30,952 bases of DNA, taken from Promethearchaeota archaeon. GTDB taxonomy: Archaea > Asgardarchaeota > Lokiarchaeia > Sigyniarchaeales > SOKP01. The stretch covers positions 1-30,952 of the forward strand of contig JAEOTP010000067.1 in assembly GCA_016839765.1 (NCBI GenBank), given 5' to 3'. Numbering within the stretch: the first letter of the stretch is position 1; each line of letters starts with the position of its first letter. A program made the position numbers and the translations under genes. The notes beneath the pieces are model-generated. The model was not told the DNA's origin and searched no databases. It saw only the letters and a program-made list of their open reading frames with translations. Positions 1-4,221 of this stretch are shown piece after piece.

Positions 1-456
1 GTAGAAGATGCTAACGTGATTATCTTTGCTATGGGATCAGTCGCATCTCAATCAAAAATAGTATTGAAAAAGCTAAGGCAAGAAGGTTTAAAAGTAGGGT
101 TAGTTAGTTTAAAACTTTTTCGACCCTATCCTGCGAAATACTTAAAAGAGTTATTGAAGGAGAAGGAAACAATTGTAGTTTTCGATAGAGATATTGGATA
201 CGGTTATGAAGGGGTATTATGCTATGAATTAAAATCAGCTTTATATGGGTTGAAGAAACCTCCTTTCATTAAAGGTTTTATAGTTGGTTTAGGTGGAAGG
301 GATGTAACAAACGAACATATTATTGATGGAGTTAATAGAGCTTTAAATCAAGCTAAAACTGGAGAGATGTCTCAAACAACTGAATTTATAGGTCTAAAAC
401 TAGATCAACTTAGTAATTATGATGAATCAACTTTTTTTGAGGAGGTAAAGAAATAA
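1..456 (+). CDS. porA: Pyruvate/2-oxoacid:ferredoxin oxidoreductase alpha subunit, C-terminal part (truncated by window edge)
   Basis: Frame is open from base 1. Motifs AMGS, KVGLVSLKLFRPYP, VFDRD and GLGGRD match the PFOR alpha C-terminal domain. Stop overlaps the porB ATG (TAATG). Confidence 0.85.
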   Translation, partial: VEDANVIIFAMGSVASQSKIVLKKLRQEGLKVGLVSLKLFRPYPAKYLKELLKEKETIVVFDRDIGYGYEGVLCYELKSALYGLKKPPFIKGFIVGLGGRDVTNEHIIDGVNRALNQAKTGEMSQTTEFIGLKLDQLSNYDESTFFEEVKK

Positions 457-1355
457 TGGTAAAAGTAATGGACATTCCCGAAGAAGAATTTATTTATCCA
501 GGAACCAGAGCATGCGCTGGGTGTTCAATGGCTTTAATATATAGGATTGCTCTTAAGGCTTTAGGTCCAAATACAATAATAACCGTACCTGCTTCATGTT
601 TAACCGTATTACATGGTATGCAGGGTTTTTGTACAACTAAAGTATCCGTATATCACACCCCGTTCGCTACCACAGGAGCTGCAGCATCAGGTATAGTAGC
701 ATCTTTGGACGATAAAGGTTTATCAGAAGACATCAATGTAGTAGCATTTGCAGGAGATGGTGGAACTGTTGATATTGGTATTCAGAGTTTAAGCGGAGCT
801 GTAGAAAGGGGTACAAATTTTATTTTTGCTTGTTATGATAATGAGGCTTATATGAATACGGGCGTTCAAAGAAGCGGAAGCACTCCTCCAGGAGCGTTTA
901 GTACTACAACACCCGAAGGAAAAACAGGTTATAAGAAAAATATGGCAAAAATTATGGAGGCTCACGGAATTCCATATGTAGCTACCGCTATATCATCTTA
1001 CCCGCTTGATCTGTATGAGAAATTTCAGAGAGCTAAAGGTATAACCGGTCCAAAATATTTGCATATTTTAGCCCCTTGCCCTCCAGGCTGGGGATACGAG
1101 CCAAAAGACTCAATTGAGATAGGTAGATTAGCCGTACAAACAGGATTTTGGCCATTATACGAAGTAATTGAAGGCAAATTTATCCTTTCTAAAGATAGTA
1201 GAAGATTTCTAGACGCTTCAAAAAGGAAACCTATAGAAGAGTATTTTAATTCCCAAAAAAGATTTAGAAAAATCTCAAAAGAAGAAATCGAAAACCATAA
1301 AAGATATATCAATGATTCATGGAATGATATTGAAAAGAGATTAGAAGAAATTTAA
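456..1355 (+). CDS. porB: Pyruvate/2-oxoacid:ferredoxin oxidoreductase beta subunit (TPP-binding)
   Basis: ACAGC, TPP motif GDGG...YDNEAYMNTGVQRS, and APCPPGW. Confidence 0.9.
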   Translation: MVKVMDIPEEEFIYPGTRACAGCSMALIYRIALKALGPNTIITVPASCLTVLHGMQGFCTTKVSVYHTPFATTGAAASGIVASLDDKGLSEDINVVAFAGDGGTVDIGIQSLSGAVERGTNFIFACYDNEAYMNTGVQRSGSTPPGAFSTTTPEGKTGYKKNMAKIMEAHGIPYVATAISSYPLDLYEKFQRAKGITGPKYLHILAPCPPGWGYEPKDSIEIGRLAVQTGFWPLYEVIEGKFILSKDSRRFLDASKRKPIEEYFNSQKRFRKISKEEIENHKRYINDSWNDIEKRLEEI

Positions 1356-1475: not shown

Positions 1476-2261
1476 ATGCTAAGAAGTTTTATTTTCAACG
1501 AGATTAAAAATAATTGGATTGAAGAGGATGAGTATTTATTTTATCATGATTTATGCGCATTTCTTGATGAAGATAGTAAAATCGTCTATCTATGGAGAGG
1601 ACCTAAGAGTACTAAAGCGAGGTATAAAAAGGGATATCAATTACTAAATGAATTAATTTCAAAGGATTTGCAATTTAAATTCCAAATTAATGTATTAGCT
1701 AGATACATTCCGGATAATGTTAAAGAAAGACTTGACAAAATGCTAATCGCAGCTAAAAAGCAAAAAGAAATTGGTAAATATAAATTTTCAAAATTCACAA
1801 CTATTAGACTTTATTCAATCTTTTTAATAGTATCAATTACTTTTCCAATCCTTTCTCTTTTATTGCTAATCACTTGTGTATTTTGGCCTGTTTCAAATGG
1901 TAATTATGTTGTATCTGCGGTAATATATCAAAGTTGGCTGTTTTATCCAAAAGTCCTATTAATAATTTCTCTAATAATGTTTATCCTTAATATGATAATT
2001 GGATTATATGAAATGGAAACTCAAGTTATTATTTTTTCATTAATGGGTGTGATAATTTGTAGTGGAGTCTTATTATATCTCCAACAAGGAATTTATTTGT
2101 TTTTATTTCAGGAGGGATCAACTTCTACTTTATATATAATTAAAATACAAGATATTACTCTGTTTTATATAATTATTTTTTCTGCAATTACTATTTTTGA
2201 ATTACCTAATTTGCTCAAATTAATATCATTCATAAGAACTTACAGAAAATATATTTTTTAA
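1476..2261 (+). CDS. Membrane protein with N-terminal gelsolin-like domain and ~4 C-terminal TM helices
   Basis: DLCAFLDEDSKIVYLWRGPKSTKARYKKG resembles the gelsolin-repeat core (D.f.lD....iy.W.G..s). Four long hydrophobic segments follow residue ~110. Confidence 0.55.
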   Translation: MLRSFIFNEIKNNWIEEDEYLFYHDLCAFLDEDSKIVYLWRGPKSTKARYKKGYQLLNELISKDLQFKFQINVLARYIPDNVKERLDKMLIAAKKQKEIGKYKFSKFTTIRLYSIFLIVSITFPILSLLLLITCVFWPVSNGNYVVSAVIYQSWLFYPKVLLIISLIMFILNMIIGLYEMETQVIIFSLMGVIICSGVLLYLQQGIYLFLFQEGSTSTLYIIKIQDITLFYIIIFSAITIFELPNLLKLISFIRTYRKYIF

Positions 2262-2337: not shown

Positions 2338-3219
2338 ATGGCTGAAGCTGCCAAACTTCTTCCCAATCTTGAAAAAGAAGATTTGAGGATATTAATGGCA
2401 ATTGAACTTGGAATGAAAAGATCTGAGTATGTTAAAATTAGTGATATAAGATTTTATGCTAGATATCCAATTGAAGAAACGCTATTTCGACTTAAAAAAG
2501 TGCATAAAAACGATTTAATTATAAGGAACTCCTCAGAATATGAAATCTCCTATACATTAAATTCACATGGGTATGATGTATTAGCTTTACATGCTTTAGT
2601 TGAAAAAAACATCATCAGTCAATTAGGACCTTTAATTGGAAAAGGAAAAGAGTCAGATGTTTATAGTTGTAGAGATGATAATGAGAATATATATGCACTT
2701 AAAATTTACCGAATGGGAAGAACAAGCTTTAAAAATATTAAGAAGTATCGAAGTTTTATAGGGAAGAGATCACATCTTTCATGGTTATACATAAACAGGC
2801 TGGCAGCAAAAAGGGAATATCGTGCATTAAACAAAATTTATTTACTTAAATTAAATACTCCTAAACCGATCGCGTTTAATAGACATGCTGTTGTTATGTC
2901 ATATTTAAGAGCTAAAGAACTTGTATATTGCCATAGCATTAAAAATCCAGATAAAATTTTTAATAAGATTATAAAACAGATAAAAGTAATATATAAAAAA
3001 GCAAATATGATTCATGGTGATTTGGGGGAATTTAATATTATTTTAGATGCGAAAGAAAATATCCTAATAATAGATTGGCTGCAGTGGGTTCCAAAAGAAC
3101 ATCCAAATGCTCACTCTCTATTAGAAAGAGATATTGAAAATGTTTGTAATTACTTTAGAAAAAAGTATAATGTTATAAGTAATCCTGATGAAATTGTCGC
3201 TGAATTTTATAAAAATTAG
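2338..3219 (+). CDS. rio2: RIO2-family atypical Ser/Thr kinase (small-subunit ribosome maturation)
   Basis: N-terminal winged helix (EDLRILMAIELGMK; GYDVLAL), GKGKESDVY, RMGRTSF, HGDLGEFNI and IIDW.Q. Confidence 0.92.
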   Translation: MAEAAKLLPNLEKEDLRILMAIELGMKRSEYVKISDIRFYARYPIEETLFRLKKVHKNDLIIRNSSEYEISYTLNSHGYDVLALHALVEKNIISQLGPLIGKGKESDVYSCRDDNENIYALKIYRMGRTSFKNIKKYRSFIGKRSHLSWLYINRLAAKREYRALNKIYLLKLNTPKPIAFNRHAVVMSYLRAKELVYCHSIKNPDKIFNKIIKQIKVIYKKANMIHGDLGEFNIILDAKENILIIDWLQWVPKEHPNAHSLLERDIENVCNYFRKKYNVISNPDEIVAEFYKN

Positions 3220-3229
3220 CGGAAATCTC

Positions 3230-3826
3230 TCAATCCTTTATTAATTTTCCTTGAATTATTACATCTTCAATAGATTCAATATTTTTAATTTTAAGATCTA
3301 TTAATTTTGAATTCAAGAATGAAATTAATAAATCTAAATCTAGATTTTTTTTTAATATTGAAAATTCTAGATTAGCCATATGTTCACCCACCCTTAAAAT
3401 TTCTATTATGCCTTTAGAAATATTAGGCAGATTTTGTAATGATGTAATTGAAAAAATTGAATCAATTCTATTATCTCTAAAAGGCAAATGCTCAATATCA
3501 CTTAATATTAAATTTACATTAAGATTATTATTCAAATTTCTACATTTATCGGCAAATCTTTTTAGCATATTCAAAGAAATCTCAATACCGATATAATTTA
3601 AAATTTGGTTAATCTTAAATTTTTTTACAATAAATTCAAAAAGAAGACCAGAACCACAACCAGCGTCTAGTATTATTTTATTTTTTTCTAACAGAAAGTC
3701 ACTGAATATTATCGTATATTTTTCTTCTTGGATTTTTCTATATCTTTTATCATAAGAAGTTGCAGTAGAGTTATATTTACTTATTATTTCCTTTTTCTTG
3801 TCATAATTCCCTTTAAAAATTCGCAA
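3230..3826 (-). CDS. Class I SAM-dependent methyltransferase (Bud23/BioC-like)
   Basis: Motif I ILDAGCGSG, IGIEIS..ML, and LPFRDNRIDSIFSITSLQ. TTG start. Confidence 0.8.
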   Translation of the reverse strand: MRIFKGNYDKKKEIISKYNSTATSYDKRYRKIQEEKYTIIFSDFLLEKNKIILDAGCGSGLLFEFIVKKFKINQILNYIGIEISLNMLKRFADKCRNLNNNLNVNLILSDIEHLPFRDNRIDSIFSITSLQNLPNISKGIIEILRVGEHMANLEFSILKKNLDLDLLISFLNSKLIDLKIKNIESIEDVIIQGKLIKD

Positions 3827-3954
3827 TTATGATTACCAAAATATAATAATTATTTAAGGGATTAATACCCGATAAAAAGGTTTTAATTCAAAAAAGTTTT
3901 TCTTTAAATTAACTTTTCTATAAATATAGTAATTATTTCAACAAAGGTAGAAAT

Positions 3955-4221
3955 ATGTCAAGTAAGAATAATAATTCTAGTTCTAAATCTAAAAATCCAC
4001 TATCAATTCTTATGGCATCACAGAATAGCCAAATTTTATTAAGATTAAAAGACGGTACTGAATATAGAGGGTTGTTAAAAGAAATTGATGCATACATGAA
4101 TCTAATCCTATATGATGCCACAGAACTCTTAGAGGGGACTCCCGTAGCTAAATATAACGAGATTTTCATACGAGGTAATAATCTTCTCTTCATAAAGCCA
4201 GATGCGTCTCAAATTATGTAG
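3955..4221 (+). CDS. Sm-like archaeal protein (SmAP/LSm)
   Basis: Sm1 motif (LKDGTEYRGLLKEIDAYMNLIL) and Sm2 motif (EIFIRGNNLLFI). Confidence 0.92.
   Translation: MSSKNNNSSSKSKNPLSILMASQNSQILLRLKDGTEYRGLLKEIDAYMNLILYDATELLEGTPVAKYNEIFIRGNNLLFIKPDASQIM

Follow-up and report, generated by a model that had tools for sequence, protein, structure and literature searches.

TM-Gel, a conserved gelsolin-domain protein with four transmembrane helices, as a candidate actin-membrane connector in Lokiarchaeia

TM-Gel, the 261-amino-acid (aa) product of an open reading frame (ORF) on contig JAEOTP010000067.1 of a Promethearchaeota archaeon (assembly GCA_016839765.1), has a gelsolin-homology domain at its N-terminus, followed by a helical stalk of basic character and four transmembrane (TM) helices, and we propose that it may connect the archaeal actin skeleton to the cell membrane. 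The window, as the whole analyzed stretch of 30,952 nucleotides is called below, carries the gene at 1476..2261 on the forward strand, from an ATG start and with the stop codon included. With high confidence, the joining of a gelsolin domain to a four-helix membrane module is an undescribed architecture. Cultured Lokiarchaeia build dynamic, actin-filled protrusions and we know of no protein that couples Lokiactin to the membrane, the published repertoire consisting of soluble profilins and gelsolins. Eukaryotes link actin to the membrane through peripheral adaptors. The gene and its parts are as follows:

1476..2261 (+), the whole TM-Gel ORF with its stop codon, from ORF calling and homologs.
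1476..1709 (+), gelsolin-homology domain core, residues 1-78, from AlphaFold2, Foldseek, profile and conserved residues; the AlphaFold2 elements are strands 2-8, 13-16, 27-31 and 36-40, a long helix 47-63 and a strand 70-73, and the hallmark residues are E16, D25, D31, W40 and G42.
1710..1793 (+), stalk helix, residues 79-101 (from the conserved P79), and basic juxtamembrane linker KYKFSKF, residues 102-106.
1794..1883 (+), TM helix 1, residues 107-136, from hydropathy and AlphaFold2.
1884..1916 (+), outer loop 1, residues 137-147, a predicted beta-hairpin with nearly no lysine or arginine, from AlphaFold2 and charge count.
1917..2012 (+), TM helix 2, residues 148-179, with W154 and E179 invariant in the window's own family.
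2019..2099 (+), TM helix 3, residues 182-208, with S188, G191, G197 and Y201 conserved; the motif YLQQGIFLFLFQEGST begins here.
2100..2144 (+), outer loop 2, residues 209-223, with a predicted strand 219-223 and with F209 and F211 invariant in the window's own family.
2145..2258 (+), TM helix 4 and a short basic end (..FIRTYRKYIF), predicted to be cytoplasmic, residues 224-261.

The head is a true gelsolin-homology domain, as the family profiles, Foldseek and the hallmark residues agree. The gelsolin family is reached by the family profiles only and not by single-sequence scans: on its own TM-Gel has no match in Pfam or NCBIfam, and its best match in the Protein Data Bank (PDB) is the Thorarchaeota ProGel at a non-significant E-value of 0.17, whereas a profile of 28 TM-Gel sequences finds gelsolin in the PDB at E 1.2e-4 and one of 44 sequences, with the most divergent members included, finds villin (2.4e-11), gelsolin (3.7e-9) and ProGel (3.4e-7). 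Individual homologs touch PF00626 in 13/28 and 14/44 cases, at E 2e-4 to 1e-3 only, and neither of the homologs from cultured species introduced below has a Pfam match. The AlphaFold2 model, made on the family alignment (mean predicted local distance difference test, pLDDT, 83.8 for the whole protein), gives the head the element order E-E-E-E-H(47-63)-E-H (E, strand; H, helix), as in the gelsolin fold, where a mixed beta-sheet packs on a single long helix and another strand and helix come after it. Its top Foldseek match against the PDB is 7c2f_B, which is ProGel (PDB 7C2F; E 1.4e-5, template modeling score 0.66 on the target), and the remaining matches listed are gelsolin, villin, adseverin, CapG or Asgard gelsolin domains. 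Cofilin is absent from the matches listed, as is the gelsolin-like domain of Sec23/Sec24, part of a COPII coat subunit, and Sec23/24 Pfam domains are likewise absent from the TM-Gel family. An Atlas structure search with the Promethearchaeum syntrophicum homolog (P0117) returned its own family, gelsolin families over residues 1-84 and nothing else. Among 44 diverse members none departs from D25 or G42, and at least 90% keep E16 and W40; D25, W40 and G42 correspond to the DWG motif, an Asp before strand 3 and a Trp-x-Gly after strand 4, named for gelsolins by Akil et al. (2020; PMC7444086).

ProGel (PDB 7C2F chain B; Akil et al., 2020; PMC7444086) is thus the nearest known structure, the best match both by fold and by single sequence in the PDB, with the same ~90-aa single gelsolin domain, the DWG residues and no calcium sites, at 19% identity over the aligned fold. 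However, ProGel is a free soluble domain while TM-Gel continues into the stalk and the four-helix bundle, and the actin binding of ProGel is known from a crystal structure while that of TM-Gel we infer. 2DGel (PDB 7WHG, 7C2G) and the G1-G6 repeats of eukaryotic gelsolin and villin share the homologous repeat, G3 being the best-aligned eukaryotic one. However, calcium sites and a WH2-like linker are found in these proteins, the helix face that inserts into the cleft is small/apolar, and none of them is an integral membrane protein.

Behind the head, Kyte-Doolittle hydropathy has four TM-like peaks (residues 115-133, 160-178, 184-202, and 229-247) and no signal-like N-terminal segment, and the AlphaFold2 model has a stalk helix at residues 80-101 followed by four long C-terminal helices (107-136, 148-179, 182-208, and 224-260), with six lysines or arginines within residues 95-112. 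Lysine plus arginine per 10 aa, counted over 44 homologs, amounts to 2.3 before TM helix 1, 0.35 in loop 1-2, 1.5 in loop 2-3, 0.38 in loop 3-4 and 2.1 in the C-terminal tail. As this distribution follows the positive-inside rule, both termini, the gelsolin head included, are predicted to be cytoplasmic. Folded alone, the membrane bundle reaches a pLDDT of 92.9 and a predicted template modeling score of 0.84, and the short strands of both outer loops form a small sheet. Tetraspans (claudin/PMP22, cornichon) also have four helices, both ends inside and a small sheet from two outer loops, however, outer loop 1 of claudin is far longer than that of TM-Gel. The likeness is a resemblance of topology only: Pfam Claudin_2 is touched by 1/28 members at E 0.014, there is no significant sequence or fold match to tetraspans, and the bundle alone has no significant Foldseek match in the PDB (best row cornichon CNIH at E 0.8, the others generic four-helix bundles, with no claudin among the rows). 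The four-helix membrane bundle is a conserved orphan. In the window's own family it holds more invariant positions than the head, including W154, E179, S188, G191, G197, Y201, F209, and F211.

Three Asgard gelsolin architectures have been described, ProGel, 1DGelX and 2DGel, in a paper from which the word "transmembrane" is absent (Akil et al., 2020; PMC7444086). In searchable full text, which excludes much subscription content, we found no membrane or transmembrane gelsolin in Asgard archaea and no TM-Gel locus tags or accessions. TM-Gel shares the single domain and the absence of calcium sites with the single-domain ProGel/1DGelX types, however, it lacks domain X, and as it has four TM helices in every member and is not soluble we regard it as a new architecture beside these types, not as one of them. 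An earlier note on this DNA had read the ORF as a gelsolin-like N-terminal domain, quoting the string YLFYHDLCAFLDEDSKIVYLWRGPKSTKARYKKGYQLLNEL, followed by about four hydrophobic helices, had expected a cytoplasmic N-terminus, and did not recognize the architecture from characterized gelsolins. This was borne out: the ORF and the string (residues 20-60) are present, the 44-sequence profile and the fold agree on a gelsolin domain, the AlphaFold and Foldseek check that the note had proposed led to ProGel and otherwise to gelsolin-family matches among those listed, hydropathy and model both count four helices, the charge distribution predicts the expected orientation, and the architecture is equally unfamiliar to the searchable literature.

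TM-Gel is specific to one Asgard order, the Lokiarchaeia lineage with Lokiarchaeum and Promethearchaeum, and is near-universal there. When the family profile was run against 400 genomes of the phylum, it matched 111/134 genomes of the window's own family, nearly all with a single copy, 13/14 genomes of a sister family of the same order, with divergent copies, and 3/4 genomes of a third family of that order; the rest of the phylum in this survey gave no match bar one chimera-like partial one. The full-length homologs (n = 42) are nearly constant in length at ~261 aa, all come from Asgard metagenome genomes and all are named "hypothetical protein." An exhaustive search brought 69 clusters at 50% identity, the distant ones at 22-31% identity and 270-320 aa and covering residues 5-250, and the head with four TM helices is common to all divergent copies. 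Neither split relatives, in the form of head-related proteins below 143 aa, nor fused forms above 457 aa were found. Exact look-up gave named homologs in two cultured species, Ca. Lokiarchaeum ossiferum (NEF87_002464, UYP46179.1) and P. syntrophicum (DSAG12_00505, QEE14692.1), and a further one in Ca. Harpocratesius repetitus. DSAG12_00505 is recorded as a "hypothetical protein" at 157 reads per kilobase per million (RPKM) with an empty eukaryotic signature protein (ESP) column, unlike DSAG12_01672, which is flagged as gelsolin-like (Imachi et al., 2020, Supplementary Table 3).

Against close orthologs the ratio of nonsynonymous to synonymous substitution rates is 0.10-0.28 for the head (residues 1-105) and 0.14-0.40 for the membrane domain (residues 106-261), values that indicate purifying selection. 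The gene order PFOR-beta, TM-Gel, RIO2 is kept in 30/30 loci of the window's family, the window's own included, and a methyltransferase is also present at 26/30; within this block TM-Gel is the fastest-evolving gene. With homologs, purifying selection and a kept position, the ORF is not there by chance.

The host genome carries five actin-family genes and four soluble gelsolin-domain genes. The latter are a 2DGel near-identical over its full length to the crystallized Lokiarchaeota 2DGel 7WHG (phmmer E 4e-157), a 203-aa GelX-like protein, a 288-aa single-domain "Gel," and a 287-aa single-domain protein (L104:1042-1905 (+), contig C15) whose Pfam Gelsolin match, at E 0.043, is below the cut-off. 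This 287-aa gelsolin-like protein has a conserved counterpart in another genome (L105), where the long helix is nearly the same. The C-terminus of 2DGel (L001:724-1734 (-), ORF residues 277-337) is a CPKC...CGQC zinc-ribbon-like module that recurs in the genomes searched, as stand-alone ORFs of 62-89 aa in most of them and at the C-terminus of several other larger proteins.

For the long helix of the gelsolin fold, TM-Gel was compared with 2DGel and Gel from the same 20 genomes and with GelX-like from the 14 genomes where it was found; positions were numbered from the Trp of W-x-G, and the charges of TM-Gel, Gel and 2DGel rest on all 20 genomes:

TM-Gel: mean helix entropy 1.62 bits, 2/22 positions of at least 80% conservation, net charge +3.1 over W+3..W+16.
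GelX-like: mean helix entropy 1.58 bits, 2/22 positions of at least 80%, net charge +5.3.
Gel: mean helix entropy 0.49 bits, 16/22 positions of at least 80%, net charge +5.0.
2DGel D1: mean helix entropy 0.47 bits, 18/22 positions of at least 80%, net charge -0.1.

The helix is nearly invariant from W+4 to W+29 in 2DGel D1 and from W+4 to W+17 in Gel, whereas in TM-Gel the buried hydrophobic positions alone are kept and the exposed ones have entropies of 1.7-2.8 bits. The calcium-ligand pair D-E at W+8,9, present in 20/20 2DGel D1 domains, is absent from TM-Gel, which has ER, KK, KR, AR and others there. Small residues at W+12..15 number 1.1/4 in TM-Gel and 3.6/4 in 2DGel D1, and the small/apolar helix face (e.g., AAAI, AGAA) is missing, with KGYQ at these positions and entropies of 1.6-2.4 bits. 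Because the D-E pair and the small/apolar face are absent and the exposed helix surface is free to vary, G1-like cleft insertion, capping and calcium control by TM-Gel appear unlikely, and of the two roles that the earlier note had suggested for the protein at the membrane, tethering or capping actin filaments, the second is unlikely to hold in this G1-like form. The variability by itself was rejected as proof of lost actin binding, as the soluble GelX-like class is equally variable and similarly basic; for the same reason a weaker, side-on, calcium-independent contact would be possible. Gel and GelX-like (cf. B35_Gel, B35_GelX, and Thor 1DGelX) also resemble TM-Gel in that they have one domain, lack the D-E pair and are basic in the first half of the long helix; however, they are soluble, with helical or disordered C-terminal extensions, and the Gel helix is near-invariant where that of TM-Gel is not. 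Profile-profile comparison (hhalign) of the TM-Gel head gave 88% with Gel, 65% with 2DGel D1 and 49% with 2DGel D2. By the missing calcium-ligand pair and the basic first half of the long helix, the head groups with the single-domain, calcium-independent Asgard gelsolins. No GelX-like ortholog was found in L. ossiferum or P. syntrophicum by single-sequence or profile search; the gelsolin-domain matches of the GelX-like profile there are 2DGel genes only, alongside an isolated domain-X-like match in an 89-aa frame of P. syntrophicum.

The reading we favor, tentatively and at somewhat less than an even chance, is that TM-Gel tethers actin filaments to the membrane through a side-on contact of low affinity that is independent of calcium. 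The head, which the basic stalk of ~22 residues sets directly above the four-helix bundle, would make weak, side-on, charge-assisted contacts with Lokiactin filaments in the manner reported for ProGel and 1DGelX. Fixed in the membrane at high local density, such weak contacts would add up and hold cortical or protrusion filaments to the membrane, with TM-Gel neither capping nor severing them. The bundle, whose outer loops form the small beta-sheet, probably also associates with itself or with a partner, which would explain why the constraint on it matches that on the head. This reading draws on the observations that every Asgard gelsolin characterized so far acts on actin, ProGel only weakly (PMC7444086), and that the basic helix is common to the soluble single-domain classes. 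In L. ossiferum five soluble gelsolin-homology proteins were enriched with Lokiactin, and B35_GelX co-purified with it (preprint 10.1101/2025.11.30.690169). A stronger claim would be that TM-Gel itself joins actin directly to the membrane in Lokiarchaeia, keeping Lokiactin filaments attached to the envelope inside protrusions as a gelsolin integral to the membrane. We consider this linker reading doubtful.

Several findings weigh against a role in actin binding. Gelsolins canonically contact actin through the exposed face of the long helix, which varies freely in TM-Gel, unlike in 2DGel D1 and Gel, and the position that is Ile in gelsolin G4 and G1 and Ala in 2DGel D1 is Gln, Glu or variable in TM-Gel. 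The protein evolves faster than its soluble relatives, with a mean identity to the copy in the window's genome of 41% compared with 53% for Gel and 71% for 2DGel, which is near-invariant across the same genomes. The family is absent from other Asgard classes in the 400-genome survey, and no actin-related gene lies near TM-Gel among its neighbors in the window, at the 30 loci or at the sister-family loci. The GelX-like control is itself uncharacterized, its orthology to Thor 1DGelX or B35_GelX not being established. TM-Gel is also not among the Lokiactin-associated gelsolins of the L. ossiferum study, in which the assay under-represents membrane proteins and the tables use Prokka identifiers (preprint 10.1101/2025.11.30.690169); by accession offset NEF87_002464 is expected as one of GNAMCCOK_02482-02486, and in the accessible part of that source the sole candidate with a listed mass, 54.8 kDa, is too large. 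The free helix surface and the lack of an actin gene nearby would also suit a head that does not touch actin at all, a gelsolin fold re-used as a cytoplasmic protein-protein interaction module as in Sec23/24, with the main job residing in the bundle as a scaffold, receptor or subunit of a membrane complex. Sec23a has the gelsolin fold without known actin binding (PMC7444086), the residues conserved across the wide TM-Gel family are nearly all fold hallmarks with no surface patch, and the greater number of invariant positions in the bundle, its confident model, and the missing calcium ligands and small/apolar patch point the same way. However, the structural neighbors among the Foldseek matches listed are all actin-binding gelsolin-family domains, purifying selection on the head is at least as strong as on the bundle, the record of the Asgard gelsolins tested speaks for actin, and the helix test does not discriminate given the soluble GelX-like paralog. 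We judge this docking role, the main rival of the tether, a serious possibility, if on balance an improbable one.

A classical membrane-anchored capper or severer is very improbable. The gelsolin fold and the DWG hallmark residues are there, however, the D-E pair that is invariant in 2DGel D1 is not, small residues are scarce at W+12..15, W+15 is polar and variable, and one-domain Asgard gelsolins are not calcium-regulated, with ProGel binding loosely (PMC7444086). A lipid-directed or other role, in which the basic helix and stalk would bind acidic, phosphoinositide-like lipid head groups and TM-Gel would sense or organize membrane domains, or in which the bundle would be a small channel or transporter regulated by the head, seems unlikely too. 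Apart from the basic stalk and helix, it could draw on the polar residues kept at the ends of the bundle, E179 and a QQ..Q-E motif, and on the reports that L. ossiferum expresses inositol-phospholipid synthesis genes and that an Asgard profilin responds to phosphatidylinositol phosphate (PIP) lipids (preprint 10.1101/2025.11.30.690169). However, no similarity of TM-Gel to transporter or channel families was found, and four helices with few buried polar residues would make a poor pore; this proposal is pure inference. Readings other than these four share a small remainder of the probability.

In the sister family that holds the cultured species, TM-Gel carries a ~40-aa cytoplasmic C-tail (L039, L040, L041; P0095, P0100, P0111) that the window's protein lacks. 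The tail ends in a motif P[ST]IL[RQ]D x3-7 [LIM][KQ][EK][IV], e.g., PTILRDKTIVELKEI, which is only loosely like the LKDV/LRRV WH2-like word of 2DGel. This motif, PTILRDK..VELKEI, may be a second, WH2-like actin contact. Two odd forms were also met. PF25109 on P0008 was rejected as an assembly chimera. The sole match outside the order, from another family of the phylum (L043, genome G058), has a truncated TM-Gel head and stalk that continue in frame into an EamA-like region with some nine TM segments; its contig is 8 kb long, and the match may reflect a genuine fusion, contamination or a chimeric assembly.

Upstream of the gene, a TATA-like AT-rich stretch, atattataatttt, lies at 1445-1457, ~25 bases before the ATG; it would fit a leaderless or short-leader archaeal transcript, and in such AT-rich DNA its occurrence by chance is easily possible. 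Directly upstream, window positions 1-1355 encode the 3' end of the alpha subunit (PFOR_II domain) and the full beta subunit (TPP_enzyme_C) of a 2-oxoacid:ferredoxin oxidoreductase. Downstream, by Pfam identity, 2338-4221 carries genes for a RIO2 kinase (Rio2_N and RIO1), a minus-strand class I S-adenosylmethionine (SAM) methyltransferase and an LSm protein, and 4227-7738 genes for a GGACT/AIG2-like protein, a minus-strand calcineurin-like phosphoesterase of the PPP type and an Eco57I/MmeI-like N6 DNA methylase of 667 aa. The neighborhood of PFOR, RIO2, methyltransferase and LSm gives no functional lead. In the sister family the neighbors are an Eco57I-like methylase and TFIIB. In L. ossiferum, H. 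repetitus and P. syntrophicum the TM-Gel homolog has an Eco57I-like methylase beside it, suggesting that remnants of synteny persist across the order.

Of the gelsolin-domain proteins found here, TM-Gel alone is embedded in the membrane, and it is conserved, single-copy across one order and transcribed in P. syntrophicum, having been missed by Pfam and by published ESP annotation. The named homologs in two cultured species, NEF87_002464 and DSAG12_00505, make the question of an archaeal actin-membrane link directly testable. Should the head not bind actin, TM-Gel would show that a prokaryote, too, has put the gelsolin fold to another use, as in Sec23/24. If the linker reading is true, an integral-membrane gelsolin would represent a pre-eukaryotic, lineage-specific solution to holding actin at the membrane.
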